NCBI RefSeq assembly: GCF_965152275.1
Contig: NC_134246.1
Location: 34,404,151 to 34,468,150 of the forward strand
DNA from: Natator depressus
Lineage: Eukaryota
Direction of reading: 5' to 3'
DNA: 64,000 nucleotides
Shown here in pieces: positions 1 through 57,760 of the stretch; the first letter of the stretch is position 1; every line of letters starts with the position of its first letter. A program made the translations under genes and the position numbers. The notes beneath the pieces were generated by a model. The model made no database searches and was not told where the DNA came from. It was given only the letters and a program-made list of their open reading frames with translations.

Positions 1-510
1 CACCAAGTGGAGTGCCCCAAGGGTCGGTCCTGGGGCCGGTTTTGTTCAATATCTTCATAAATGATCTGGAGGATGGTGTGGATTGCACCCTCAGCAAGTT
101 TGCAGATGACACTAAACTGGGAGGAGAGGTAGATACGCTGGAGGGTAGGGATAGGATACAGAGGGACCTAGACAAATCAGAGGATTGTGCCAAAAGAAAT
201 CTGATGAGGTTCAACAAGGACAAGTGCAGAGTCCTGCACTTAGGACGGAAGAATCCAATGCACCGCTACAGACTAGGGACCAAATGGCTCGGCAGCAGTT
301 CTGCAGAAAAGGACCTAGGGGTTACAGTGGACAAGAAGCTGGATATGAGTCAACAGTGTGCCCTTGTTGCCAAGAAGGCCAATGGCATTTTGGAATGTAT
401 AAGTAGGGGCATTGCCAGCAGATCGAGGGACGTGATCGTTCCCCTCTATTTGACATTGGTGAGGCCTCATCCGGAGTACTGTGTCCAGTTTTGGGCCCCA
501 CACTACAAGA
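1..510 (+). mobile_element. CR1 LINE fragment (ORF2 reverse-transcriptase C-terminal region) joined abruptly to the next CR1 copy
   Basis: ORF 12..551 translates to [22 protein letters not shown]...FWAPHYKK. It is ~95% identical to residues of the 491..2662 ORF. The sequence is duplicated at 1770-2275. Confidence 0.8.
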
Positions 511-2750
511 AGGAGGCAGTGACCATGAGTTGGTTGAGTTCAGGATCCTGACGCAGGGAAGAAAGGTAAGCAGCAGGATACGGACCCTGGACTTCAGGAA
601 AGCAGACTTCGACTCCCTCAGGGAACAGATGGCCAGGATCCCCTGGGGGACTAACATGAAGGGGAAGGGAGTCCAGGAGAGCTGGCTGTATTTCAAGGAA
701 TCCCTGTTGAGGTTACAGGGACAAACCATCCCGATGAGTCGAAAGAATAGTAAATATGGCAGGCGACCAGCTTGGCTTAATGGTGAAATCCTAGCGGATC
801 TTAAACATAAAAAAGAAGCTTACAAGAAGTGGAAGGTTGGACATATGACCAGGGAAGAGTATAAAAATATTGCTCGGGCATGTAGGAAAGATATCAGGAG
901 GGCCAAATCGCACCTGGAGCTGCAGCTAGCAAGAGATGTCAAGAGTAACAAGAAGGGTTTCTTCAGGTATGTTGGCAACAAGAAGAAAGCCAAGGAAAGT
1001 GTGGGCCCCTTACTGAATGAGGGAGGCAACCTAGTGACAGAGGATGTGGAAAAAGCTAATGTACTCAATGCTTTTTTTGCCTCTGTTTTCACTAACAAGG
1101 TCAGCTCCCAGACTGCTGCGCTGGGCATCACAGAATGGGGAAGAGATGGCCAGCCCTCTGTGGAGATAGAGGTGGTTAGGGACTATTTAGAAAAGCTGGA
1201 CGTGCACAAGTCCATGGGGCCGGACGAGTTGCATCCGAGAGTGCTGAAGGAATTGGCGGCTGTGATTGCAGAGCCCTTGGCCATTATCTTTGAAAACTCG
1301 TGGCGAATGGGGGAAGTCCCGGATGACTGGAAAAAGGCGAATGTAGTGCCAATCTTTAAAAAAGGGAAGAAGGAGGATCCTGGGAACTACAGGCCAGTCA
1401 GCCTCACCTCAGTCCCTGGAAAAATCATGGAGCAGGTCCTCAAAGAATCAATCCTGAAGCACTTACACGAGAGGAAAGTGATCAGGAACAGTCAGCATGG
1501 GTTCACCAAGGGAAGGTCATGCCTGACTAATCTAATCGCATTTTATGATGAGATTACTGGTTCTGTGGATGAAGGGAAAGCAGTGGATGTATTGTTTCTT
1601 GACTTTAGCAAAGCTTTTGACACGGTCTCCCACAGTATTCTTGTCAGCAAGTTAAGGAAGTATGGGCTGGATGAATGCACTATAAGGTGGGTAGAAAGCT
1701 GGCTAGATTGTCGGGCTCAACGGGTAGTGATCAATGGCTCCATGTCTAGTTGGCAGCCGGTGTCAAATGGTGTGCCCCAGGGGTCGGTCCTGGGGCCGGT
1801 TTTGTTCAATATCTTCATAAATGATCTGGAGGATGGTGTGGATTGCACTCTCAGCAAATTTGCGGATGATACTAAACTGGGAGGAGTGGTAGATACGCTG
1901 GAGGGGAGGGATAGGATACAGAAGGACCTAGACAAATTGGAGGATTGGGCCAAAAGAAATCTGATGAGGTTCAATAAGGATAAGTGCAGGGTCCTGCACT
2001 TAGGATGGAAGAATCCAATGCACCGCTACAGACTAGGGACCGAATGGCTAGGCAGCAGTTCAGCAGAAAAGGACCTAGGGGTGACAGTGGACGAGAAGCT
2101 GGATATGAGTCAACAGTGTGCCCTTGTTGCCAAGAAGGCCAATGGCATTTTGGGATGTATAAGTAGGGGCATAGCGAGCAGATCGAGGGACGTGATCGTT
2201 CCCCTCTATTCGACACTGGTGAGGCCTCATCTGGAGTACTGTGTCCAGTTTTGGGCCCCACACTACAAGAAGGATGTGGATAAATTGGAGAGAGTCCAGC
2301 GAAGGGCAACAAAAATGATTAGGGGTCTAGAGCACATGACTTATGAGGAGAGGCTGAGGGAGCTGGGATTGTTTAGTCTGCAGAAGAGAAGAATGAGGGG
2401 GGATTTGATAGCTGCTTTCAACTACCTGAAAGGGGGTTCCAAAGAGGATGGCTCTAGACTGTTCTCAATGGTAGCAGATGACAGAACGAGGAGTAATGGT
2501 CTCAAGTTGCAATGGGGGAGGTTTAGATTGGATATTAGGAAAAACTTTTTCACTAAGAGGGTGGTGAAACACTGGAATGCGTTACCTAGGGAGGTGGTAG
2601 AATCTCCTTCCTTAGAGGTTTTTAAGGTCAGGCTTGACAAAGCCCTGGCTGGGATGATTTAACTGGGAATTGGTCCTGCTTCGAGCAGGGGGTTGGACTA
2701 GATGACCTTCTGGGGTCCCTTCCAACCCTGATATTCTATGATTCTAAGGA
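491..2750 (+). mobile_element. CR1 LINE copy, 5'-truncated. It has one uninterrupted 723-aa ORF2 remnant (end of AP-endonuclease, RT, C-terminal domain) plus a 3' UTR ending in an ATTCTATG microsatellite
   Basis: ORF 491..2662 carries RT motifs ([18 protein letters not shown]). The 3' tail reads ggactagatgacc...ccaaccctgatattctatgattcta, typical of a CR1 3' end. Confidence 0.85.
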
Positions 2751-3215
2751 TGTGGAAAAATTGGAAAGAGTCCAGCGGAGGGCAACAAAAATGATTAGGG
2801 GACTGGAACACATGACTTATGAGGAGAGGCTGAGGGAACTGGGATTGTTTAGTCTGCAGAAGAGAAGAATGAGGGGGGATTTGATAGCTGCTTTCAACTA
2901 CCTGAAAGGGGGTTCCAGAGAGGATGGATCGAGACTGTTCTCAGTGGTAGTGGATGACAGAACGAGGAGTAATGGTCTCAAGTTGCAGTGGGGGAGATTT
3001 AGGTTGGATATTAGGAAAAACTTTTTCACTAGGAGGGTGGTGAAACATTGGAATGTGTTACCTAGGGAGGTGGTGGAATCTCGTTTCTTAGAAGTTTTTA
3101 AGGTCAGGCTTGACAAAGACCTGGCTGGGATGATTTAGTTGGGGATTGGTCCTGCTTTGAGCAGGGGATTGGACTAGATGACCTCCGGAGGTACCTTCCA
3201 ACCCTGATATTCTAT
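2750..3215 (+). mobile_element. Short 5'-truncated CR1 copy inserted exactly at the 3' end of the previous copy
   Basis: ORF 2752..3138 matches the last 128 aa of CR1 ORF2. The same 3' UTR and ATTCTATG tail repeat at 3139-3215. Confidence 0.85.
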
Positions 3216-5939
3216 GACATTGAAAGCAAGAGCTTATCATTGTAACACAGTTTTCAATCCACCAGCCTCCTCCTCAGTACATTCCTTAATTGACAGGCAC
3301 AATAAAAACAAAATCATAAATGTAATCTTATGTGAGGGCTGCGATTTCGCTGTGGGCACCCTCTTCTAGAACTACCATCTCCTCCTCCTCATCATCTTCC
3401 TCTTGACAACCAAACCTTTTGCCATCTTTACTAACTTCAGGGGTCACGTCCAGTAACAGCTGATCAAGAGGCCTCTACCAACTATCTCACAGATCTGAAT
3501 ATCGACGCTGTCTTCCTTCAGCAGAAGAGCCTGGTGGTTTCCATATCTTGATCTAACACCAGCCACCAAAAACAGCTTCTGGCCACATCTTTCCTGGCTA
3601 CTTGTTCTGTGATTTGGCCACCCCAAAAGGGTATAGTGCACCACCTTAAGCTAAATGGGGTCATTCCTTCTTTCCAGAGTAATTTCCTTATCTGTAATAG
3701 GGAGGTTGTCTAGAAAAGAGATTCTATATCCAAAATTTTCTTCATGGGCGGCGCATAACGGAGGCTAGGAGAGGCTAAGCCTCCGCAAACCTCGTGCTGC
3801 TGTGTGGGGGGGGAAGGGGTGTCAGTGGCAGATTCCCACATGGCCTATGGGCCTCGGCCAATTTGGGGCCCCTGGAAAAATCTCCCCCAGCTATTGGGGC
3901 AGGGCTGGAGGAGCTCTTGCTCCCCTCTGCAGAGCTTTTCTGTTTTCAGGGCTGCAGCTGTGGGAGGAGGCAGGGACTTGTGGGGGGAGGCAGAGTGGGG
4001 GTGGGGCCATGGGAGAAGGGGATGAATGTGGGGGCTGGTGTGCTCTCTTCAGGGCAGAAAGGAACAAGACCTGTCACTACAACACACGGACAATCTAGTC
4101 AAACCTTTGACCCGGGTGATTTGTGAGCCATGCACGTCAGTGTGGGCAACTGCTTTTCTGCTGGTGTCTGTGGATTTCTTAGGGGAGGGGGAAGATCAGA
4201 CGAGCCAGATGCAGCATTGCAGGGTGGGGAGCCTGGCGCTCTGTCCCTGCTTCTCCATACTCCTTTTTGCCCACCCCCATTCTTCTCCTGTTCATTCTGC
4301 CCCGGGAGCCTCTGCTCCTTTTCGCCTCCCTTCAGCCCAGGCCTCCCGGGCCCAGCAGCAGAAGCATTAAACAGGAGTTCACCTGCCCTCACTGAAGCTG
4401 AGCAAATACGCAATTTTTCAGTTTGGTGGCTAAGGCAAAAAAAAACAGGAAAACAATCGGTTCATTTCTAACCCACACCGTTGTTTTTTCTCTTCAGTTT
4501 TTCTCACTGAAACAAAGAAACTAATAAAAGAAAGAGGGGGAAAGGGTTCGGGTTGAGCAAAACGTCCTGTCAACATTTCGCCTTGGAAATGTGTTAAAAC
4601 AAAATGTGGAAACGCGCCGTTGTGAAAATGTCGGAACAAATCATTTCAACTCTTGAGCAAGTTTTGCCTCATTTTCTAGTCAGCGGAAACCATTTGCTGG
4701 ATTGGACCCAAATCCGTGAATAGTTTTAATGCATTTTAAACCCGCAGCCCAGCTCAGCAGCGTGGCGCAATCAAGGCAGGGACACTCCTGCTCCCGGCTC
4801 GCAGCCAAATGGACGCACGAGACCCCCGGTGGGAAGAGGCAGATGGGGGTGACGGGCTGCAAACGTCACATCCAAGTAACTAGACCTGGCAGCCTTGATT
4901 TAATGTGTCCCCCAGCGTGTTATGTGAGAACCACAGCACCGCCCCCCCCCCCCGCCAAAACCGCCCACAGTTCCCTATGCCCAACAGTCATTTTAACACA
5001 TGTCACAGGTAGATGGTTAAGAATTTAGGGAATACTGCGGAAACTTGTGTTTCTTGGTGCCAAAGAATAATGTCTTTCAGCATTATAAATCCAAAATGTG
5101 AGTATCTTTAAGCGTTATTAAACCTTAGCGTTATTATCGGGCTGTATAATTATGAACTTTCTTTGTTTTAATTGGTTCACATGTAATAAATAAGGTCGAT
5201 AAAAGAAAAGTAACAGCGTTAAAGCTTAATAGACTACGAAAGTGACGACATCACACTCCAAGCGGGTAACCGTGAGGGAGGGGATTATTTTCCAAACAAC
5301 TGGTGTCGGGTTATAACGTTGAAAATGTCATTTTGTTTCCGTGTAAACACTGTTACTAGCTGTTTTAATAGGTAAGTGAGTGTATGTTACTAATCATTGA
5401 ATCTTTAAGCAGTGAAAAGACGTGTTGGGATGGCTGCAATGTGGTTTAAATCACCAACAATGTGGTGGGTGTGTCAGCCATCCTTAACGCTATAATACTT
5501 GCAGTCGGGAGCACAGTACATAACAATATTCAAATGCCCCATGGCAGCAAGAGGAAAAAGAAAACCCTCAGGAGCTGAGTATTGTAAATGAAAGGCTGAG
5601 AAGGAAAAGGACCAAGCAAAACAGCAGGGATCCTTCCTGAAATATCTTCTCTTTAATCCAAATAAAGATGGAAGCAGTTCACAGCATCCAAATGAAGGAA
5701 TTTTCCTTGGAGAGGAGGTTAGCTCACATCCGCATGGAAGCAGTTTGGAACATCAAGATGAAGGTATATTACTTCGAGATGAGGGTAGCTCACATCCACA
5801 AAAAAGCAGTTTGGAAACTCAAGATGATGGAAACTAGATGAAGGCAGCTCACAGCATCAGGCTGATATGGAAGTGGAGAAAATTTATTCACCTTCAGAGC
5901 AAATGTATAAATTGAAGTAAATGAAGTAGAAGGAAGAAA

Positions 5940-10052: not shown

Positions 10053-11555
10053 TCAAATCATCCCAGCCAAGGCTTTGTCAAGCCTGACCTTAAAAACTTC
10101 CAAGGAAGGAGATTCTACCACCTCCCTAGGTAACGCATTCCAGTGTTTCACCACCCTCCTAGTGAAAAAGTTTTTCCTAATATCCAACCTAAACCTCCCC
10201 CACTGCAACTTGAGACCATTACTCCTTGTCCTGTCCTCTTCTACCACTGAGAATAGTCTAGAACCATCCTCTCTGGAACCACCTCTCAGGTAGTTGAAAG
10301 CAGCTATCAAATCCCCCCTCATTCTTCTCTTCTGCAGACTAAACAATCCCAGTTCCCTCAGCCTCTCCTCATAAGTCATGTGTTCCAGACCCCTAATCAT
10401 TTTTGTTGCCCTTCGCTGGACTCTCTCCAATTTATCCACATCCTTCTTGTAGTGTGGGGCCCAAAACTGGACACAGTACTCCAGATGAGGCCTCACCAAT
10501 GTCGAAGAGAGGGGAACGATCACGTCCCTCGATCTGCTCGCTATGCCCCTACTTATACATCCCAAAATGCCATTGGCCTTCTTGGCAACAACGGCACACT
10601 GTTGACTCATATCCAGCTTCTCGTCCACTGTAACCCCTAGGTCCTTTTCCGCAGAACTGCTGCCTAGCCATTCGGTCCCTAGTCTGTAGCTGTGCATTGG
10701 GTTCTTCTGTCCTAAGTGCAGGACCCTGCACTTATCCTTATTGAACCTCATCAGGTTTCTTTTGGCCCAATCCTCCAATTTGTCTAGGTCCCTCTGTATC
10801 CTATCCCTGCCCTCCAGCGTATCTACCACTCCTCCCAGTTTAGTATCATCCGCAAATTTGCTGAGGGTGCAATCCACACCATCCTCCAGATCATTTATGA
10901 AGATATTGAACAAAACCGGCCCCAGGACCGACCCCTGGGGCACTCCACTTGACACCGGCTGCCAACTAGACATGGAGCCATTGATCACTACCCGTTGAGC
11001 CCAACAATCTAGCCAACTTTCTACCCACCTTATAGTGCATTCATCCAGCCCATACTTCTTTAACTTGCTGACAAGAATACTGTGGGAGACCGTGTCAAAA
11101 GCTTTGCTAAAGTCAAGAAACAATATATCCACTGCTTTCCCTTCATCCACAGAATCAGTAATCTCATCATAGAAGGCTATTAGATTAGTCAGGCATGACC
11201 TTCCCTTGGTGAATCCATACTGACTGTTCCTGATCACTTTCCTCTCATGTAAGTGCTTCAGGATTGATTCTTTGAGGACCTGCTCCATGATTTCTCCGGG
11301 GACTGAGGTGAGGCTGACTGGCCTGTAGTTCCCAGGATCCTCCTTCTTCCCTTTTTTAAAGATTGGCACTACATTAGCCTTTTTCCAGTCATCTGGGACT
11401 TCCCCCGTTCGCCACGAGTTTTCAAAGATAATGGCCAATGGCTCTGCAATCACATCCGCCAATTCCTTTAGCACTCTCGGATGCAACTCGTCCGGCCCCA
11501 TGGACTTGTGCACGTCCAGCTTTTCTAAATAGTCCCTAACCACCTCTTTCTCCAC
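10053..11555 (-). CDS. CR1 ORF2 reverse transcriptase + C-terminal domain (500 aa)
   Basis: 97-99% identical at protein level to the ORF at 491..2662. Confidence 0.85.
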
Positions 11556-12262
11556 AGAGGGCTGGCCATCTACTCCCCATGTTGCGATGCCCAGCGCAGC
11601 AGTCTGGGAGCTGTCCTAGTTAGTGAAGACAGAGGCAAAAAAAGCATTGAGCACATTAGCTTTTTCCACATCCTCTGTCACTAGGTTGCCTCCCTCATTC
11701 AGTAAGGGGCCCACACTTTCCTTGGCTTTCTTCTTGTTGCCAACATACCTGAAGAAACCCTTCTTGTTACTCTTGACATCTCTTGCTAGCTGCAGCTCCA
11801 GGTGCGATTTGGCCCTCCTGATTTCATTCCTACATGCCCGAGCAATATTTTTATACTCTTCCCTGGTCATATGTCCAACCTTCCACTTCTTGTAAGCTTC
11901 TTTTTTTATGTTTAAGATCCGCTAGGATTTCACTGTTAAGCCAAGCTGGTCGCCTGCCATATTTACTATTCTTTCGACTCATCGGGATAGTTTGTCCCTG
12001 TAACCTCAACAGAGATTCCTTGAAATACAGCCAGCTCTCCTGGACTCCTTTCCCCTTCATGTTAGTCCCCCAGGGGATCCTACCCATCCGCTCCCTGAGG
12101 GAGTCGAAGTCTGCTTTCCTGAAGTCCAGGGTCCGTATCCTGCTGCTTACCTTTCTTCCCTGAGTCAGGATTCTGAACTCAACCAACTCATGGTCACTGC
12201 CTCCCAGATTCCCGTCCACTTTTGCTTCCCCCACTAATTCTTCCCTGTTTGTGAGCAGCAGG

Positions 12263-12865
12263 TCAAGAAAAGCTCCCCCCAGTTGGCTCGTCTAGCACTT
12301 GCACCAGGAAATTGTCCCCTACGCTTTCCAAAAACTTCCTGGATTGTCTATGCACCGCTGTATTGCTCTCCCAGCAAATATCAGGAAAATTAAAGTCACC
12401 CATGAGAACCAGGGCGTGCGATCTAGTAGCTTCTGCGAGTTGCCGGAAGAAAGCTTCATCCACCTCATCCCCCTGGTCTGGTGGTCTATAGCAGACTCCC
12501 ACCACTACATCACTCTTGTTGCTCACACTTCTAAACTTAATCCAGAGACACTCAGGTTTTTCTGCAGTTTCGTACCGGAGCTCTGAGCAGTCATACTGCT
12601 CCCTTACATACAGTGCTACTCCACCACCTTTTCTGGCCTGCCTGTCCTTCCTGAACAGTTTATAACCATCCATGACAGTACTCCAGTCATGTGAGTTATC
12701 CCACCAAGTCTCTGTTATTCCAATCACATCATAATTCCTTGACATCACCAGGACCTCCAGTTCTCCCTGCTTGTTTCCAAGGCTTTGTGCATTTGTATAT
12801 AAGCACTTGAGATAACCTGCTGATCGCCCCTCCTTCTCAGTATGAGGCAGGAGCCCGCCTCTCAC
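12263..12865 (-). CDS. CR1 ORF2 apurinic-like endonuclease domain (200 aa)
   Basis: Carries EEP-family motifs (ITETW, GDFN). Confidence 0.75.
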
Positions 12866-12945
12866 AGACGTTCCTGCCTGTGTTTCCTCCCGGTATCCCG
12901 CTTTCCCACTTACCTCAGGGCTTTGGTCTCCTTCCCCCGGTGAAC

Positions 12946-13893
12946 CTAGTTTAAAGCCCTCCTCACTAGGTTAGCCAGCCTGCTCGCAAAGATGCTCTTC
13001 CCTCTCTTTGTAAGATGGAGCCCGTCTCTGCCCAGCACTCCTCCTTCATGGAACACCATCCCATGATCAAAGAATCCAAAGCCTTCTCTCCGACACCACC
13101 TGCGTAGCCATTCGTTGACTTCCACGATCCGACGGTCCCTGCCCCGTCCTTTTCCTTCCACGGGGAGGATGGACGAGAACACCACTTGCGCCTCTAACTC
13201 CTTTATCCTTCTTCCCAGAGCCACGTAGTCCGCAGTGATCCGCTCAAGGTCATTCTTGGCAGTATCATTGGTGCCCACGTGGAGAAGCAGGAAGGGGTAG
13301 TGATCCGAGGGCTTGATGAGTCTCGGCAGTCTCTCCGTCACATCACGAATCTTAGCCCCTGGCAAGCAGCAGACTTCTCGGTTTTCCCGGTCAGGGCGGC
13401 AGATAGATGACTCAGTCCCCCGGAGGAGAGAGTCCCCGACCACCACCACCCGCCTCCTTCTCTTGGGAGTGGTGGTCGTGGAACCCCCCATCTCAGGACA
13501 GTGCATCTCATGCCTTCCAACCAGCGGAGTCTCCTTCTGCTCCCTTCCCTCAGACGTATCATCTGGTCCACTCTCCGCATTAGTACCTGTGGAGAGAACA
13601 TGAAAGCGGTTAGTTACCTGTGTCTGCGTTGCTGAAACCCGGACATCCCCCTTTCTTCTTCTGGAGGTCACATGTTGCCAAGCCTCTTCACTGGCCTCTT
13701 GGCTCCGCTGTGCAACCTGCTCTAAATTTTTAGAGCTTTGTGCCCGTAGAAGCATATCCTGACTATGTGTGTCAATGTGATGTGTGTCAACAAAGGTTGC
13801 GCTATACACAATATACCTAACACAAAGCCAAGAAAGGAAAAGTGAAGGCAACCAGACAGTACGTGCCCTACTCTGCCACCCAGAGACACACAT
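12946..13893 (-). CDS. CR1 ORF1 with SGNH/GDSL-type esterase domain (315 aa)
   Basis: Contains [11 protein letters not shown] and [10 protein letters not shown], the GDSL esterase blocks described for CR1 ORF1. Confidence 0.7.
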
Positions 13894-14405: not shown

Positions 14406-15137
14406 ATGCTTCCTAACTTTCAGATAAGCTGGCTGAGTACAATAAAGCTACCCCAGGTTGTGTCTACATTAGGGTTATGATCTCAAGTTAGCTACCTCGT
14501 TGTAAACAAGGCTTCCTCCTTCATGTCCACCCCTTCCCTGCTGCAATTGAAGACAGCCAGGGACAGGAGAGGTTTGCATCAAAATGGAAGCAAAGCCTGA
14601 CTCGCCAGCCAGGAAACACGATGCATTTTCAGGGGGAAGAGGTTGCACAAGAGAAGCCAAAAGGGCACTTTTCACAGGCCTAGGTGTCAGTGCCTGGGGG
14701 TGGGGCTCTGCTGTCACACACCCCTCGAGAGGCCTCATCTTCTATCCAGAAAAGTTCCAGTTAAAGACAGCAAATTGAACTCTTGTCTCTGAGATGGGTT
14801 GTTTGCGTTAGGATGAGAAATTGAGGAGGCAAGATGGGTCTGTTCTGGGTGTGGTTTTGTATATTGCAAAGAATGCACACACAGTCCGGTTCTCTGAACA
14901 CAGTGGGAGCAAACAGCAGCAGGCAGGTTCCTTGCTCAGAAATCCCCACATCTGCACCTCCAGGTGGTTCTGTGCCCAAGAAATGCTGTCTTTCTGCTTC
15001 CTCTTCAACACACTCACAGTTCTCCTCGGGAATTTTTTACTCCAACACAGGCAGCTGGCAAATCAGTATCCCAGCCCCTGTGTTTGCAATCAGCACTTGC
15101 AATATTCACGCACCAGGTGAGAACCTAACCTTCAGAC

Positions 15138-17460
15138 TCAAAACATAGGGCAGTTAAAAGTGAATAAAACCATGCCCCAATGATAACTCCATATAGTCAT
15201 AGATAGAGAGATGGGTTTATACAGTTCTGTATAGAGAGAGAGATGGGAGTGCTTGGGGATGGATAGACTGCTGTATGTAGATAGACAGATGGCAGTGTGT
15301 GTGGGGACAGATAAACGGCTGTATGTAGATAGACAGATGGGAGTGTATGGGGATGGATAGTAGGCTGTATTTGGATAAACAGATGGGAGTGTATGGGGAC
15401 GGATAGTTGGTTGTATGTAGTGTGATGGGGCAAGGCCAGATGGCAAAAGGAAAGTAGTGAGAAACAGGTATATTTGCCCCAGGCTAAATAAACCCCTGTT
15501 AACATGATAACCAAATAGCAGTTGCTCCAGGTCAATTAAGACACTTGGGGCCAATTAAGATCCTTCTAGAAAGCAGTGGAGACAGCTAGGTTGATTGGGA
15601 CACCTGAAGCCAATCAAGGGCTGGATGGAACTAGTTAAAAGCCTCACAGTTAGTCAGTTAGGGGCCTGTGTCAGGAGCTTTAGGAGGAAGCCGCGCTGCT
15701 CAAGAAACTGGGTAGGACAAACCCTATCAGGCACAAGGAAGGAGGCACTGAGGTAAGGGTGAAGTAGATGTTGAGGAAGTGGGGGCTGCTGTGGGGAAGT
15801 GGCCCAGGGAATTGTGCTTGTCCTGTTTCAAAAAATCAGCTACCAATAGCTGCTACTATTAGGGTCCCTGGGCTGGAGCCCGCAGTAGAGGGTGGGCCCG
15901 GGCTTCTCCACCCCCATCCCCAATTAATCACAGAGACTGTGAGACAACAGAGACTGTGTGAGGGAGAGATGCTTCTTCCCACCTCCCTTGCTGTCTTATG
16001 ATGAAAATGGCTCAGTAGGCTGTGACCCTTGCCTCTAGAGAGAAAACGGCTATGTTGAGGGTCACAGTGAGCCTCTGAGGCTAGCATAATCCACCTGGAA
16101 GTGTGGGACCCACTGAGACAAGGTCAGAGCTTTGTCACAGTAGATGGATAGATGGGAGTGTGTGGAGAGGGATAGATGACTGTATGTGTATAGAGAGATG
16201 GGAGTGTATTGGGGATGGATAGACGGCGGTATTTGGATAGACAAATGGGCGTGTGTGGGGATGAACAGACAGCTATATGTAGATAGATGGGAGTGTATGC
16301 GGATGGATAGAAGTCTGTATGTAGATAGACAGATGGGAGTGTGTGGAGAGGGCTAGACTGCTGTATTTAGATAGAGAGACCAGAGTGTATGGGGATGGAT
16401 AAATGGCTGTATTTGGATAGACAGATGGTAGTGTGTGGAGATGAACAGACGGCTGTATGTAGATAGATGGGAGTGTATGGGGATGGATAGACAGCTGTAG
16501 TTGGATAGACAGATGGGAGTGTGTGGGGATGGATAAATGGCTGCATGTAGTGTGACGGGACAAGGCCAGATGGCTATAGAAAAGTAGTGGGAGATAGATA
16601 TATTAGCTCCAGGCTAAACAAATCCCTGGTACCAGGATAAGTTAAATGGCTGCTGCTCCAGGTCAATTAAGACACCTGGGGCCAATTAAGAACTTTCCAG
16701 AAGGCAGGGAGAAAGCTAGGTTGATTGGGACACCTGAAGCCAATCAAGGGCTGGCTGGAACAAGTTAAAAGCCTCCCAGTTAGTCAGGTGGGTGCGGATG
16801 TCAGGAGCTGTGGGAGGAAGTTGTGCTGTTGGAGAGACTGAGCAGTACACACCATATCAGGCACAAGAAAGGAGGCCCTGAGGTAAGGGTGAAATGGAGC
16901 TTGAGGAAGTGGGGGCTGCTGTGGGGAAGTAGCCCAGGGAATTGTATGTCATGTTTCTAAAAGGTCAGCTACCATAGCTGATGCTATTAGGGTCCCTGAG
17001 CTGGAGCCCAGAGTAGAGGGTGGGCCTGGGCTCCCCCTTCCCCCCCCCGCCCCCCTGATTAATCACTGAGACTGGGAGACAACAGAGACTGTGCAAGGGA
17101 GGATAGCTTCTCCTCACCTCCCTCGCTGGCTTATGATGAAAATGGCTCAGTAGACTGTGACCCTTGTCTCTAGAGAGAGAAGAGTTATGTGGAGGGTCAC
17201 AGTGAGCCTCTGAGGCTAGCGAAATCCGCCAGGAAATGCGGGGCCCACGGAGACAAGGACAGAGCTTTGTCACAATAGATAGACAGATGGGAGTGTATGG
17301 AGACAGATAGACAGCTTTTTGTAGATAGGAGTGTATGGGGATGGATAGATGGCTGTATGTAGATAAGACAGATGGGAGCGTGTGGGGATGGATAGATGGC
17401 TGGATGTAAATAGATAGATGGGAGTGTGTGGGGATGGATAGACAACTGTATGTAAATAGA
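15138..17460. repeat. Two tandem ~1.1-kb higher-order units, each an array of ~44-bp satellite monomers (gatggatagacggctgtatgtagatagacagatgggagtgtgtgggg) plus ~650 bp of unique-like sequence
   Basis: 15460-16270 and 16560-17260 are ~90% identical. Monomer arrays sit at 15180-15420, 16100-16560 and 17270-17460. ORFs on the minus strand here are repeat artefacts. Confidence 0.8.
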
Positions 17461-19548
17461 TCAGCGGGCGCCATGGTGCCTGCTGGGGCATTTATGTGCA
17501 CCCACTTAGTGACATGGTGTGAAAAATAGTGCCCAGCACCTGCTGGGAACAGAGAACTCCGGGGCTAAAGGCTGCGGGTGCCGGTGTTCTCTGTCCCCGG
17601 CAGGCGCGGGGCTGCGGCTTCTCTCCGGCTTCTCTCCGCACTGCCCAGAACTGCAAAAAAAAGAAATAAAAAAAAGCGGCTCGGACTGCCGCCGCCCGAA
17701 CTGCCAAAGTGCAAAAAAAAAAAAAACCGCTCGGACGCTGCCGCCAAAAGAATGGATGGAATGCCGCCCCTTAGCATGTGACACCCCAGGCATGTGCTTG
17801 CTCCTCTGGTGTCTGGAGCCGGCCCTGTAAGTGAGTATTCTTCCGCTGCACTGATACTGCCGTTTTCTTGTGCTTTGCGATTTATTATTTTTTTAACATT
17901 TTGCCCCAAAATGAGTGGTTCAAATAAAAGACAACATACATAGTATATCAATGCAGAGTGGGAAGATCTATTGGTTTATTGAAAATAAAGGGAAATGTGT
18001 TTGCTTATTGTGCGGTGGAACTGTTGCAGCGCTGAAAAAACATAATGTCGAACGCCATTTCCAAACTAATCACGGCTCTTTTGACATTAGCCATCCACTT
18101 AAATCTGAGTTGAGAAAGAAGAAAATTAATCAACTCAAATCAAACCTACCTGCCCAGCAACCTGTTTTCACCAGACAAGTGGTAAAGTCTAAAAATGCTA
18201 CTATTGCTTCCTTTAAAATTGCTCATCTGCTCGCAAAGAAGAAAAATCCCTTCCAAGATGGCGAATTGCTGTAGGAAGCATGTTCGACTGGTGCAGATTG
18301 CCTATTTCAAGGATTTCCTAACAAGCGTGAGATTTTGTCGGCAATACAAGACTTGCAGTTATCAGACAACACAGTTACGAGGAGGATACGTGCAATTTCA
18401 AGCGACATGCAAACTCAGCTAAAGGATGACTCGGAAATATGTGACTGGTTTTCACTGCAGTTCGATGAGTCGACAGATATGTCGGATACAGCGCAGTTGG
18501 CAGTTATGGTGAGGATGGTATTCAGTGACTTCCCCGTAAAAGAAGGGTTACTAAAAGTATTGCCTATGAAAGGGCGAACAAAGGGTGAGGACATCTATAA
18601 TTTATTCAAATCATACGCAACATCAATTAGCATGCCACTACACAAGCTGTCTGCAATCACCACTGATGGGGCACCAGAAATGATGGACAGCGCCTATGGA
18701 TTCATTGCATCCTGCAAGAAGAATGAATCCTTTCTGAACTTTATGTCTTATGATTGCATTATCCACCAAGAAGCTTTGTGCGTCAAAGTTCTTTCTTTTC
18801 AACAAGTCATGAATATCGTTATTAAAATAATTAACTCTATTCAAGCAAAACCTTTGCAACACCGACTTTTTAAGGCCCTGTTGGAAGACGTTGATGATAA
18901 ACAATCTGATCTTATCTTGCACACAGAAGTACGATGGCTGAGCAAAGGTAAAGTTCTTGCATGTTTTTTAAGCCAAATTGAAGAGATCAAAGAATTTCTG
19001 AAGTCCACAAATCAGAACTTCGAGCAACTAGAAGACTCCAGCTGGTTAATAGATTTGGCTTTTCTTGCCGACATTACTGACAAATTGAACATTTTAAATC
19101 TTGAGCTCCAGGGAAAAGACAAACATGTGGCTCAAATGATAGGTTCTGTAAAATCATTCAAAGCAAAACTGATCTTGTGAATGTCACATATGAAGACGAA
19201 GTCTCTCGTACATTTCCAAAGTATGAAGAAAATGGTATGTGACAGTGATTTTAACCCATCACCATTTGTTATCCACATTCAAACACTTCTGGAACAATTT
19301 GAAAAGAGATTTCAACAGTTCACCATCATTGAGCCTGTAGTTGCCTTTCTTGTGAATCCTTTTACTTGCCAAATAGAGGTAACAGAAATGGCTACATCAG
19401 CCTGCAGCCCCGGAGTTCTCTGTTCCCGGCAGGTCCGGGGCCACGGCTTCTCTCCCGTGCTGGGCACTACTTTTCACACCGTGTCACTAGGCAGGCACAC
19501 ATAAATGCCCCTGTGGGCGCCATGGCACCTGTGGGCACTGCGTTGGGG
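17461..19548 (+). mobile_element. hAT superfamily DNA transposon with ~110-150-bp terminal inverted repeats and a frameshifted transposase
   Basis: Left end 17461-17575 (cagcgggcgccatggtgcctgctggggcatttatgtgcacccacttagtgacatggtgtgaaaaatagtgcccagcac) is the reverse complement of 19440-19548. The internal ORFs look like a hAT/Charlie transposase. Confidence 0.75.
17915..19504 (+). pseudogene. hAT transposase (N-terminal zinc-finger region, catalytic core, C-terminal region) split over 3 frames
   Basis: ORF 17915..18274 has Cys/His spacing. ORF 18335..19180 reads TTDGAPEMM...IIHQEALC...RWLS, like ZBED5/GTF2IRD2/EPM2AIP1-type hAT proteins. ORF 19181..19504 follows. Confidence 0.7.
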
Positions 19549-19959
19549 ACCACTGGTTTAGACAGTCAGGAGTGTATGGGGATAGTTTCCATTAACCTGA
19601 AATTTTCAACCAAAAAAAAAAATCATTTTTTCAAAGGAACTGAAACATTTTCCTGACAAAGTTTAGTTTTCACCTCACAAACCAGAAAGCACAATCCTGA
19701 CTTTGGGGGGGTTCATTCTATCAATGACACCCTGAAAAAATTGCAATACATTTATTTTGCACAAAAAGAAAAACATTTTTCAGGCAATTCTTTTGTCAGA
19801 AGAATTATCCTTTGCTCCTAAGATGCTGGCGACATTGCAGACAAACCCCAGATGTTTCAAGAACGAGATGAAGAAATTTGGTTTAAAAAATTCCTTTTAC
19901 ATTTAGAATAACTCTGGCTCTTTCAAAACTCTTGACATGTGAGAAGAGAATGGTGCCCA

Positions 19960-20500
19960 CTTTTACCAGGCACACGAAGCCAAGTTGACTTCTTTAATAG
20001 CCGCCTCCGCCCTGCAGGCTCTGCCTCTCATGGGTGTGTCCAGTGTTGGTATCAGCCCATGGAACTTCCTGCCACTGGATGTTACTCAGGCTGACACCTC
20101 AGCCTCAGGATGTCTCTAGTTATCCACAGGGTCCTGCTCGGCTCTCTCAGGATGGTTCGCCAGCTGTACTAAGGCTGTGGAGGGTTTCCCTGCCTCTGTT
20201 CAGGGCTGGCTTCTTGCCAGTCACTCTGCAAAGCGAGATTGTTCCATAAGTGGCAAATTGAACAATATCATCCTGTCACTGGGGCAACCTGTGGGCTTAT
20301 CTTGCCTTCATTTGAACCTTTACACGTAATTAATCATTTTATTATCCATTAACCTTTGATACCGGGCTAAAATTGAGACTCAGAGTTCATACGGTTACTT
20401 TTGTGTAATCAACAGATCGTATCACTCCTTTAGTTACCTCAGTTTGTACCATGGAATCACTGTCTTGCTTCTTTACAGTTCACATCAACGTATAGAGGCC
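19960..20500 (+). repeat. Unclassified interspersed repeat (copy A)
   Basis: ~80% identical to 21620-22150. The shared 5' portion reads tttaatagc(c/t)gcctc(c/t)gcc(c/t)tgcaggctc. Confidence 0.6.
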
Positions 20501-21470
20501 CTGGGAGTTTTTCACCTTCCTCTGCAGTGTGGGGAACGGGTCACTTGCTGGAGGATTCTCTGCACCTTGAAGTCTTTAAACCACGATTTGAGGACTTCAG
20601 TAGCTCAGACATAAGTTAGGGGTTTGTTACAGGAGTTGGTGGGTGAGATTCCCTGGCCTGCGTTGTGCAGGAGGTCAGACTAGATGATCATAATGGTCCC
20701 TTCTGACCTTAAAGTCTATGATTCTATGATTCGGTTTCATTCCATTTCATTTTCCTCCCATAGCATTTGAATTAAACAGTTTTTATCTATTTCAAAGGAA
20801 AGTTCCTTTGCTTGGAAGATCCTAGTCCAGGGACTGGACCTTCTAGGGGGAGAATGAACCAGGCACAGAAATTAACCAATAACCCCAGTTCCAGCCTTTG
20901 TTCTTGTTTGTCGGATGAGAAACAATGAATTAATAATTCCATCGGACAGACTGTGGTTTCTGCCTGTTAGCAATTTGGAAAATTTGGGTTTGGTTTTTCG
21001 TTTGCTACATTCATTTTGAATGTTAAAATTCCCAGGGACTCACCAGTTTGAAGCACCCCCTTTTACCCCTCAAGGCAGGAAAGGGGAATACAAACCCACA
21101 GCCTGTGACAGCTATAACAGCATCCAGCCGTGTGCTGGACCAAGCTAATGGAATAAAGACAGTCATCACTGTTTAATTCCTTTGGGGGCCTCTATATGAA
21201 CAATGCAATTGCGGGGATGATTGCACGTTGGCTTGGCTACACTGAAAATACGAGAGGGCCACAGCTGTGCACACCTACGCCACCCAGGGCGGTTCTCCCA
21301 GCAGCGTGGTTAACCACCTCCCCGAGAGCTGGGAGCTAGGTTGAGGGAAGAATTCTAACCCACCCCCTGCCTCGCCAGCACCCTTCAGTTCTGGGCCCTT
21401 CTCAAGCTCTTTATCCCACCTTTGCAACTGTGCTCACCCACACCTGTCTGCTGCTTGCCCCAGCACTAGC

Positions 21471-21550
21471 TGCATCCTAAAGCCCATTTGCAAAAGGCCA
21501 ATCCGTGGGCTCATCCAGGATTTGAACCCAGGGCCTCTCACACCCGAAGC
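21471..21550 (-). pseudogene. tRNA-Pro(CGG)-derived pseudogene or SINE head
   Basis: The reverse complement reads GGCAGGGCTTGTTGGTCTAGGGGTATGATTCTTGCTTCGGGTGTGAGAGGCCCTGGGTTCAAATCCTGGATGAGCCCA. Compared with vertebrate tRNA-Pro-CGG as I recall it, six CG positions read TG, and one of them breaks the T-stem. Confidence 0.55.
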
Positions 21551-21619
21551 AAGAATCATACCCCTAGACCAACAAGCCCTGCCTAAAAAGGAGGTGCAGG
21601 TGCCTCACTAAGCTAGAAT

Positions 21620-33039: not shown

Positions 33040-33425
33040 AGCTCTGTTTGCCTCTTTCCTTCCCTCTCCTCCCTCCTATCCCTTCCTTCGCTACCTCCCT
33101 CCTCCTTCCCTCCCTCCCCGTTCCCTCCTCTGCCCCGTCCTTCCTCCCTCCCTTCTTTCCCTCCCTCCCTGTTCCCTATGCTGCCCCATTCCTTCCCATC
33201 CCTCCCTCCCCGTTCCTTCCTCTGCCCCATTCCCTTCCTTCCCCCCCTCCCTGTTCCCTCCTCTGCCCTGTTCCTTCCCTCCCTCCCTCCCTTTCCATTC
33301 CCTCCTCCTCTTCCCCCCTGTTCCCTCCTCTGCCCTGTTCCTTCCTTCTCTTCCCCCCTGTTCCCTCCTCTGCCCCGTTCCTTCCTTCCTGTCCCTCCCC
33401 ATTCCCTCCTCCCCTCCACCGCCCT
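33040..33425. repeat. Pyrimidine-rich minisatellite (ccctccctccccgttccctcctctgccccgttccttcc, ~38-bp unit) filling almost all of PNP intron 5
   Basis: Seen in sequence. It gives spurious P/S-rich and R/G/E-rich ORFs on both strands. Confidence 0.85.
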
Positions 33426-42479: not shown

Positions 42480-43265
42480 GGGAGACCCCCCCACCCAGTC
42501 CCCCAGCACCGGGGAGAGACCCCCATTTTAGCCCCCCATTCCCAGCGCCCAGGGGAGATCCCCTATTCTAGCCCCTCAGCGCCAGAGACACCACCCTTTC
42601 CACCCTCCAGCATCAGGGGAGACCCCCCATACTGCCCCACCATTCCCAGCCCCTCAGTGCCCAGAGGAGACCCCCCAATCCAGCCCCCCAGCATCGGGGG
42701 AGACCCCATAATTCTAGCCCCTCCCCATTCCCAGCATCCCGACGCCAGAGACACCCCGCAATCCAACCCCACTACTCCCAGCTGGCCGGCAGCAGACACC
42801 CCCCCAATCCAGCCCCCTACTCCCAGCCCCCCGGCGCCAGAGACACCCCCCTTTCCAGACCCCGTACTCCTATCCCCCCAGCACCAGAGATATCTCCATT
42901 CCAGCCCCCCAGCACCAGAGACACCCCCAATCCAGCCCCCCATTCCTAGCGCCCAGCACCAGAGACACCCCCAATCCAGCCCCCCATTCCTAGCCCCCAG
43001 CACCAGAGACACCCCCCAATCCAGGCCCCCTACCCCCAGTGCCAGAGACACCCCCCAATCCAGCCCCACTATTCCTAGCCCCCCAGCACCAGAGACACCC
43101 CCCAATCCAGCCCCCCAGTGCCAGAGACTCCCCCCATCCAGCCCCCCTACTCCCAGCCCCCCAGCGCCAGAGACACACCCCTTTCCTGCCCCCCTATTCC
43201 CAGCCCCCCAGCGCCAGAGACACCCCCTAATCCAGCCCCCCTATTCCCAGCCCCCCGGAGTCGAG
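42480..43265. repeat. ~50-bp minisatellite, ~15 units (ccagccccccagcaccagagacaccccccaatccagccccccattcc), between the divergent PNP and PIP4P1 promoters
   Basis: Seen in sequence. It is the source of the P-rich ORFs 42657..43271 and 42563..43105. Confidence 0.85.
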
Positions 43266-56151: not shown

Positions 56152-57760
56152 GTGAGCCGGGGCCTCCCCGTCCTTACCCGTCCCCCCCCCGGCCCCCCCT
56201 TTCCTTACCCATCCCCCCCCGCGCCCCTCCCCTGCCCCGGGCCCTCCCGTCCTTACGCATCCCCCCCCACGCGCCCCTCCCCCTCCCCGGGCCCCCCTGT
56301 CCTTACCCATCCCCCCCGTGTCCCTCCCCTGCCCCGGCCCCCCCCCCGTCCTTACCCATCCCCCCCCCGTGTCCCTCCCCTGCCCCGGCCCCCCCCCCGT
56401 CCTTACCCATCCCCCCCCCGTGTCCCTCCCCCACCCAGGGACCCAGCCCCCCCATCCTTACCCATCCCCCTCCCCCACCCTGGGACACCCCCCCCAGGCC
56501 TCCCCGTCCTTACCCCTCCCTCCCCTGGGACCCTTCCCTCCCCCGTCCCCGGGCCTCCCCGTCCTTTCCCATCTCCATCTTCCCTCCGTCTGCCCCCCAG
56601 GCCCCATACACATAGACAGACACACACACACACAGCCGGGCCTCCCTGTCCTTACCCATCTGCCCCCCATCCCTCCTGCGCCCCTACCCTGCTCTGGGAC
56701 CTTTCCCCCCCACAGGCCTCCCCATCCTTACCCATTCCCATCCTCCCTCTGTCTGCCCCCTATCCCCCCTGCGCCCCACCCCGAGACACTCCCCCCCCCT
56801 TCTCCCCGGGCCTCCCTGTCCTTAGCGGTCCTACCGTGCCCTGGGACACCCCCCGCCCCTCCGGGGCCTCCCCATCCTTACCCATTCCCCGTCCGCCCAC
56901 CAGCCCTGACACACACCCCCACACCCCGGGCCTCCATGTCCTTACCCATCCACCCCCCATCCCTCCTGTGCCCCTACCCTGCTCCGGGACACCCCCCCAC
57001 CCCCCACGGGCCTCCCCATCCTCCCTCCGTCTGCCCCCTATCCCCCCTGCGCCCCCACCCCGAGACACTCCCCGTTCTTACCGGTCCTACCCTGCCCTGG
57101 GACACACCCCCCCCCCCCGGGGCCTCCCCGTCCTTACCCATCCCCATCGCTCCTCTGTCCGCCCCACTGCTCCAATACACACGCACCCGGGCCTCCCCTA
57201 GGAGCTCCCCGTTGCGAGCCTCCCCAGAACCCCTGCTGGGACCCCCAGTCCTTTACCCATCCTCTCTCCGTCCGCCCCGCCCCAGGACCCCCAACCTCTC
57301 CCCTGATCCCCATCCCTCCTGCGCCCCCCCTGGGGCCTCCCCATCCCGGGCCTCCCCAGGACTTCCGCTGGGACCCCCCCCCCATCCTTACTCATTTCTT
57401 CCTCCATCCGCCTCCCCAGGACCCTGCCTGGGTCTCCCAATCCTGAGCCGCTCTGGGACTCTCGCTGGGACCCCCCCCATCCTTACCCATCCACCCACTG
57501 TCCACCCCGGGACCCCCCAACCTCCGCCCCGATCCCCATTCCCCCTGCGCCCCTACCCTGCCCTGGGACCCCCCACTGGCCTCCCCATCACGAGCCTCCC
57601 CGGGACCCCTGCTGGGACCCCCTTCATCCCCATCCCCATCCCCACCCCGCCTGGGCCTCCCCATCCCGAGCCTCTCAGGGACCCCCGCTAGGACCCCTCC
57701 CTTTCCTTACCCATCTTCCCACCGTCCACCCTCCTGCCCCGGGACCCCCCCCCCAACCTC
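56150..57760. repeat. 1.6-kb C-rich minisatellite (ccgtccttacccatcccccccccgtgtccctcccctgccccggccccccc, ~60-bp unit, ~25 units) filling most of OSGEP intron 1
   Basis: Seen in sequence. It is the source of the 457-aa and 349-aa proline-rich ORFs at 56318..57691 and 56152..57201 and of the G-rich ORFs on the minus strand. A C(21) run lies at 57960-57980. Confidence 0.9.

Follow-up and report, generated by a model that had tools for sequence, protein, structure and literature searches.

Published active elements of the Buster clade of hAT transposons are 2.5-3.0 kb long, encode 597-677 aa and carry terminal inverted repeats (TIRs) of 14-16 bp (PMC12637253), and the consensus of the Buster target-site duplication (TSD) is nnnTAnnn (PMC3517528). 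The left ends of hAT elements hold multiple transposase-binding sites (PMC10368747). Derivatives of the maize Ac element of the Ds-del/Ds2 type, and MITEs (miniature inverted-repeat transposable elements) born through miniaturisation at microhomologies, are non-autonomous, keep their termini and TSD, and contain internal deletions joined at short microhomologies with rearranged or filler DNA at the junction; abortive gap repair has been invoked for the Ds-type derivatives and for the birth of MITEs (PMC3260210, PMC3814204). Here we describe a hAT element with long inverted arms, which occupies positions 17462-19555 (2,094 bp) of a 64,000-nt stretch of the turtle Natator depressus (GCF_965152275.1, contig NC_134246.1, 34,404,151 to 34,468,150, forward strand; hereafter the window). 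The reading that we favour, with a probability of roughly 0.6, is that the long TIR stems from duplication, in inverted orientation, of the element's own 5′ end, which replaced its 3′ third, and that the copy would be a defective, non-autonomous Buster-clade derivative that arose by abortive gap repair with template switching at a time when the family was active.

The locus resembles the Buster clade (TcBuster, SPIN, AnBuster and the domesticated ZBED5, FAM200 and GTF2IRD2) in its homologous transposase, with PF27073, PF27046 and, as matches under cut-off in this copy, a SPIN-DOC-type zinc finger and DUF4371. Its relatives are about 2.9 kb long and have about 610 aa, a C-terminal PF05699 domain, 14-15-bp TIRs beginning with CAG and 8-bp TSDs of the form nnnTAnnn. 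Unlike these, the window copy has neither the dimerisation domain nor the native right end, carries an inverted duplicate of the left end instead, and has lost its left TIR. It shares retained termini and TSD and a microhomology junction with the maize derivatives and MITEs, but differs from them in that the 'filler' is the element's own inverted 5′ end, which replaces the 3′ end outright. The parts of the element are as follows.

17462-17574, plus strand: left arm (hAT 5′ end), starting with the terminal CAG and lacking 21 terminal and 24 internal nt
17531-17636, plus strand: 5′ subterminal hairpin, from a repeat pair and a DNA fold
17850-17910, plus strand: native 5′ untranslated region (UTR) of the hAT element; homology to Pelodiscus begins at 17850, corresponding to 5443 of locus L001
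17911-19399, plus strand: transposase pseudogene, codons 1 to about 497 of about 610, from tblastn, Pfam and alignment of copies
19398-19399, plus strand: CA microhomology at the junction between the truncated open reading frame (ORF) and the inverted 5′-end copy, from an alignment to the reverse-complemented left-arm loop and to the copies in Pelodiscus and Eretmochelys
19400-19555, minus strand: right arm, interpreted as an inverted copy of the hAT 5′ end, about 156 nt inward from the exact terminus CAGTGGTCCCCAAC

The inverted arms (17462-17574 and 19400-19533) are about 85% identical. An inverted-repeat search returned them as two pairs, 17467-17539/19457-19529 (73 nt, 84%) and 17531-17574/19398-19441 (44 nt, 89%), which merge into a single inverted blastn alignment (E=8e-17). 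The gapped alignment has 16 differences at 110 aligned positions, that is 85.5% identity or 14.5% divergence. The original prediction of more than 100 bp of inverted identity around a hAT-like coding region was thus borne out by repeat search, blastn and gapped alignment. Its right boundary, 19548, has to be moved outward by 7 nt: the right arm has its true terminus at 19555, with the minus-strand sequence CAGTGGTCCCCAAC, which is of the classical hAT type. Of the short TIRs of hAT elements (about 11-25 bp, beginning with CAG), the one at this end is intact. At the left end only the CAG is kept; the canonical left TIR was destroyed, because the 21 nt directly following the CAG (TIR and subterminal sequence) are missing. 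A 24-nt segment present in the right arm is absent from the left one.

The inner part of the left arm belongs to the 5′ subterminal hairpin. Its stem is formed by 17531-17562 and 17581-17612, its loop lies at about 17563-17580, and the structure extends out to about 17636. The stem arms were detected as a 32-nt pair with 84% identity in the inverted-repeat search, and the DNA fold has an energy of -33.3 kcal/mol (z=-4.1). The segment 17581-17626 also matches 19410-19455 of the right arm in direct orientation (87% identity, blastn).

The native ends of the family can be read from several relatives. The full-length one, at 149-3043 of the freshwater-metagenome contig L005 (2,895 bp, about 75% nucleotide identity), is bounded by TIRs of 15 bp, CAGAGGTTCCCAACC and CAGGGGTTCCCAACC, with the perfect 8-bp TSD ATCTAGAT on both sides. 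The native right end of the Eretmochelys copy, at 7931 of L003, reads ...GGTTGGGGGCCACTG, then CGCTAGAT, and a third native right end with a short TIR comes from L011/L012. The native left end of the Pelodiscus copy, at 4502 of L001, reads C[C]GTGGTCCCCAACACGGTGCCCG. In the relatives the TIRs of 14-15 bp start with CAG.GG..CCCAAC and the 8-bp TSDs fit nnnTAnnn; TA occupies positions 4-5 in all five flanks, including the two of the window. By the evidence of these ends, the family to which the window copy belongs is an ordinary short-TIR Buster hAT family. A putative Pelodiscus right end at L001 11906-11926 was set aside, since it has 4 mismatches and an unconvincing context. Beyond that third short-TIR right end, the gecko locus L013 and contigs L011/L012 contributed nothing.

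The octamer GTGCCC(G/A)C recurs subterminally at both ends in all members examined (the window arms, L005 149-215 and 2960-3043, the right end of L011 and L003 7860-7931), and is plausibly a transposase-binding repeat.

These ends bear on the suggestion, made in the original prediction, that the element represents an atypical hAT family with native TIRs of 110-150 bp. An inverted identity of about 110-156 nt does exist, as such a family would have it. However, L003, L005 and L011 have native right ends that agree with the arm over the 14-nt TIR and then diverge, L003 and L005 share a subterminal motif specific to the right end, AG.GTGG.GGGCACCA, equally far from the tip (positions 50-75), and in the full-length L005 the arm sequence is confined to the left end. 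Short TIRs were therefore what the other copies had, as far as these three allow, and we regard a natively long-TIR family as extremely improbable.

The evidence for the origin of the right arm comes from the same comparison. Read inward, 67 nt of the right arm align with the left end of L005, terminus included (z=18.7 against shuffles), and the alignment contains a near-palindrome, GG.GCCATGGCGCC, and repeated GTGCCC-type motifs. The left arm of the window has the family's 5′-end motif, GGCGCCATGG, and GTGCCC-type subterminal motifs in common with the L005 left end. With the native right ends of L003 and L005 the right arm shares the 14-nt TIR and nothing more. Homology between the window and the turtle copies extends from 17850 to 19399 and stops there abruptly: past this point, C-terminal coding sequence follows in the turtle copies and the arm in the window. 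The inverted copy begins at the exact terminus, ends in the loop of the 5′ hairpin, and is joined to the ORF through a 2-nt CA microhomology. All sequence 3′ of codon 497 is lost, and with it the dimerisation domain, 3′ UTR and native right end; in relatives this part measures about 0.65-0.95 kb. This copy would thus have a long TIR because an inverted duplicate of the 5′ end took the place of the native 3′ part. The turtle copies (Pelodiscus L001 and L002, Eretmochelys L003) differ from the window copy: they run through the C-terminal coding part (residues 1-610 in L001), L003 ends in a native right end with a short TIR, and none of the three contains arm sequence beyond about 24 nt.

A different source of the arms, an unrelated palindromic MITE in which a hAT fragment is nested or by which it was captured, was also put forward in the original prediction. 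The left region is indeed itself a foldback, consisting of the arm, the loop and the start of an inverted arm, and the left arm is separated from the ORF by a real fragment of an unrelated MITE:

17641-17827, plus strand: 3′ part of an unrelated hAT-type MITE, about 66-70 nt missing from its 5′ end; the start was placed by eye, and blast homology covers 17699-17831

The terminal repeat of this nested MITE, CTGGAGCCGGCCCTG, is at 17813-17827. A complete 166-bp copy is present in Eretmochelys (L003 12963-13128), with TIRs CAGGGCCGGCTCTAG and CTAGAGCCGGTCCTG and a perfect 8-bp TSD, GAAGCAGC. The position of the fragment between the hairpin and the native 5′ UTR means that the 5′ region was rearranged too. 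As host of the hAT sequence, however, a palindromic MITE is very unlikely. Over their outer 67 nt, terminus included, the arms show homology to the 5′ end of the hAT family itself; the coding fragment has neither termini nor a TSD of its own; and the 5′ UTR and ORF stand in their native orientation relative to the left arm. The whole unit, moreover, behaves as one insertion with an 8-bp TSD, as the surrounding satellite indicates.

The insertion site lies at the end of a higher-order tandem duplication of about 1.13 kb. Self-blast aligned 15227-16329 with 16361-17460 at 82.8% identity over 1120 bp, in agreement with the duplication of about 1.1 kb described earlier, and direct-repeat families are spaced at 1128-1135 bp. 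The satellite has a period of 46 bp and occurs in three separate blocks (Tandem Repeats Finder (TRF) arrays 15232-15420, 16143-16550 and 17322-17461), not as 44-bp monomers in a single 15138-17460 array. The third block, 17285-17461, hosts the insertion.

15227-17460, no strand assigned: two units of about 1.13 kb, each with a block of 46-bp monomers, from self-blast, TRF and direct repeats
17454-17461, plus strand: left TSD copy, AAATAGAT, fitting nnnTAnnn
19556-19563, plus strand: right TSD copy, GTTTAGAC, fitting nnnTAnnn, from the empty-site comparison with the paralogous unit
19559-19582, plus strand: rest of the interrupted 46-bp monomer, matching the satellite consensus at 21 of 24 positions (z=9.4 against shuffles)

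The element had been thought merely to adjoin the last monomer; since the monomer resumes at 19559-19582, it sits inside one. In the paralogous unit (16290-16350) a single AGATAGAC stands where the window has AAATAGAT, the element and GTTTAGAC, and the flanks are gap-free and colinear with the paralogue only after removal of the element and of exactly one 8-mer. We read the locus as a single insertion because the monomer resumes at 19559 and because removing the element and one 8-mer restores colinearity. This anatomy supports one insertion within a 46-bp satellite monomer, with a decayed 8-bp TSD, apparently later than the 1.13-kb duplication. The search for flanking 8-bp TSDs that had been proposed gave two 8-mers with TA at positions 4-5, the right one beyond the corrected terminus and not next to 19548; they differ at half of their positions.

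Two hAT copies might instead have inserted head-to-head, adjacent or nested, and a later deletion might have taken away the 3′ part of the first and left only 156 nt of the second. The right side would then likewise be an inverted 5′ end, and the junction a simple deletion with microhomology. The satellite makes this history highly improbable. For two independent insertions, the colinearity of the flanks after removal of one 8-mer would need a coincidence in satellite phase of about 1 in 46, and a nested second copy would border hAT sequence, not satellite.

Divergence places the rearrangement in time. The ORFs of the window, Pelodiscus and Eretmochelys copies are approximately equidistant, in a star-like manner, with Kimura two-parameter (K2P) distances of 0.054-0.060, or 0.034-0.043 at non-CpG sites; the turtle copies have 94.2-94.6% nucleotide identity across the shared ORF, and the distance of the window copy from other turtle copies is about 6%. 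Among the 16 differences between the arms, eleven are CpG decay, several of them seen as TG in one arm and CA in the other at the same ancestral CG. At non-CpG sites the arms diverge by about 5%, compared with 4.3% between the turtle ORF copies. Because these two values match, the arms would have been identical around the time when the family was active. The 14.5% divergence of the arms might suggest that they came from different source elements; we rejected this, given that most of the differences are CpG decay and the rest correspond to the age of the family. Judged by these distances the element is old, and the relatively recent activity assumed in the original prediction does not fit either the 6% distance to the other turtle copies or the divergence of the arms. 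Later decay is evident in the 21-nt and 24-nt deletions of the left arm, the truncated nested MITE, CpG decay, the frameshift and three stop codons.

The anatomy points to abortive gap repair with a template switch between TIRs, because the element retains its termini and TSD, the inverted copy starts exactly at the terminus and stops at the hairpin, and the junction has microhomology. In this sequence of events a full-length copy would have excised, and synthesis-dependent copying would have repaired the double-strand gap. A strand primed at the right flank would have copied the 14-15-nt TIR before changing template to the identical left-end TIR; it would have gone on inward along the left end up to the hairpin and would there have dissociated. 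Microhomology would then have joined it to a strand copied from the left as far as codon 497.

Several observations weigh against this reading. No turtle copy was recovered in which the long 5′ subterminal region is intact: the left end in Pelodiscus (L001 4502) corresponds to the arms over about 24 nt only, and no other copy therefore attests nt 68-156 of the arm, hairpin included, as native 5′ sequence. The TSD copies AAATAGAT and GTTTAGAC are identical at only four of eight positions, and the case for them leans on colinearity with a paralogue that is just about 83% identical. The steps of gap repair and template switching are inferred from the anatomy. Finally, that the junction is unique to this locus was gauged from the window, 39 kb of turtle loci and searches of proteins and metagenomes, all of them weak tests.

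The last point matters for an alternative in which the 5′-end inverted duplication occurred once and was then mobilised in trans, so that this locus would be one of several or many insertions in an amplified subfamily with two left ends and long TIRs. The intact right terminus stands beside an nnnTAnnn target with an 8-bp TSD, and the element could have transposed as it is now built; the arm divergence dates to the active period of the family; and the GTGCCC-type motifs, repeated in both arms, are compatible with the multiple transposase-binding sites of hAT left ends (PMC10368747). On the other side, in situ gap repair would have kept the termini and the TSD equally well, and no second copy of the arms or the junction came to light. 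The arms had no second copy in the window or in the 39 kb of Pelodiscus and Eretmochelys loci, the translated right arm (an open frame) had no match among 5.8 billion proteins, and a scan of Joint Genome Institute (JGI) metagenome contigs with an arm-specific 22-mer and a degenerate pattern of the family's 5′ end gave no match. Two exact ORFs of the window, one across the ORF/arm junction and one beginning MQTQ, likewise had no recorded counterpart. We consider such a subfamily possible but unlikely, and it is doubtful that this element is a member of a mobile subfamily, amplified in turtles, whose TIRs measure about 156 bp and whose two ends are both left ends.

The transposase places the element in its clade and shows how far the copy has decayed. 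The closest proteins are turtle predictions annotated as 'GTF2IRD2A-like', from Pelodiscus sinensis (89-91% identity) and Eretmochelys imbricata (89%). They are followed by intact proteins of 610-612 aa with 69-72% identity (best E=1e-219), in which PF14291, PF27073, PF27046, PF18658 and PF05699 are present. With the 610-aa protein P0002 as tblastn query, residues 21-497 aligned with 17969-19405 of the window (70% identity), and residues 1-610 with the Pelodiscus loci. The identification as a hAT element therefore stands, with 89-91% identity to turtle hAT-derived proteins and about 70% to intact 610-aa transposases. The protein and nucleotide identities, and the MITE shared with Eretmochelys, point to a turtle as the probable source. 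By homology to Buster-type hAT transposases, which have an RNase-H-like catalytic core with an insertion domain, the window element is a member of the Buster clade, and its predicted product resembles the GTF2IRD2/ZBED5/FAM200 group. In searches with P0002 against the sequences of PDB chains and with Rfam models against 15000-21000, no match was found.

The coding region begins with an ATG at 17911. It is interrupted by a TAG at 17941-17943 and, in the alignment with the Pelodiscus copy, by a 2-nt deletion at 17966/17967, after which one frame continues to 19399 with two in-frame stops, TAG at 18272-18274 and TGA at 19178-19180. The damage thus amounts to three stops, one 2-nt frameshift and the loss of the last 113 codons. 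The original prediction had described a largely intact transposase of about 800 aa broken by two frameshifts only; about 497 codons were found, full-length relatives have about 610 aa, and besides the four disabling mutations about 19% of the protein is gone, dimerisation domain included, leaving about 81% covered.

In the Pfam search the window translation matched a SPIN-DOC-type zinc finger and DUF4371, both under cut-off. The N-terminal zinc finger PF18658 scored 25.2 bits in the window copy (cut-off 27.3) and 28.9 bits, above cut-off, in P0002. The hAT dimerisation domain PF05699 had no match in the window translation; in P0002 it covers residues 525-585 (28 bits, cut-off 21.4), and it is absent from the window copy because the coding sequence is truncated at residue 497. 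The domain checks suggested earlier consequently gave no dimerisation domain and a zinc finger below threshold. The present copy is immobile and non-coding.

Relatives of the transposase are scattered. Intact 610-aa ORFs with about 70-72% protein identity occur in a freshwater metagenome and in Logan contigs (L004-L007), one of them with perfect TIRs and TSD, and similar proteins are present in the scorpion Centruroides sculpturatus (P0006 and P0009). Patchy distributions of this sort are usually ascribed to horizontal transfer of Buster elements. The two Pelodiscus loci, L001 and L002 (CM112041.1, 11.24 Mb and 3.12 Mb), contain the same hAT copy, 100% identical over 1165 bp, and their flanks, including a tRNA-like sequence just upstream, are identical too; the pair represents either a recent segmental duplication or a duplication in the assembly. 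In three Logan contigs of about 1.8 kb (L008-L010, from SRR22107227, SRR22107229 and SRR22107231) a 163-aa product has an Ala/Thr/Gly-rich N-terminus fused to the hAT zinc-finger part, and may derive from a chimeric or exonised transcript. These contigs are chimeric, contain the N-terminal coding part only and are uninformative about the ends of the element.

For annotation, the lesson of the locus is that a long TIR in a single copy should not be taken as a family trait. The clean breakpoints fit template switching in gap repair, a process thought to be a source of Ds-like and MITE-like derivatives. The biological weight of the case is small, as DNA transposons of this kind are common and this is a single decayed copy amid repeat-rich DNA. 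Should the junction prove to exist in multiple copies, it would record how a long-TIR, non-autonomous hAT lineage was born. Were there a mobile subfamily with two left ends, a Buster-type transposase would be able to mobilise substrates with two 5′ ends, and this would be one route from a short-TIR hAT to a long-TIR, foldback-like non-autonomous family.

The rest of the window contains other repeats. A near-complete CR1-type LINE (long interspersed nuclear element) with long open frames lies at 10053-13893 on the minus strand; its ORFs encode a GDSL-lipase/esterase domain (12946-13893), then an endonuclease (12263-12865) and, last, a reverse transcriptase (10053-11555). Another LINE is represented by a 723-aa reverse-transcriptase ORF at 491-2662 on the plus strand, and the 3′ part of this LINE is tandemly duplicated at 2270-3217 (period 476 bp, 2.0 copies, 93%). 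ARAGORN predicted a tRNA-Pro (CGG) at 21505-21579 on the minus strand, which may be a real gene or the head of a tRNA-derived SINE (short interspersed nuclear element). From 28000 to 64000 the GC content is 54-72% in all but three of eighteen 2-kb windows, well above that of the left half, and this region is rich in C-rich/G-rich minisatellites, for example at 33049-33412, 42570-43256 and 56177-56573.

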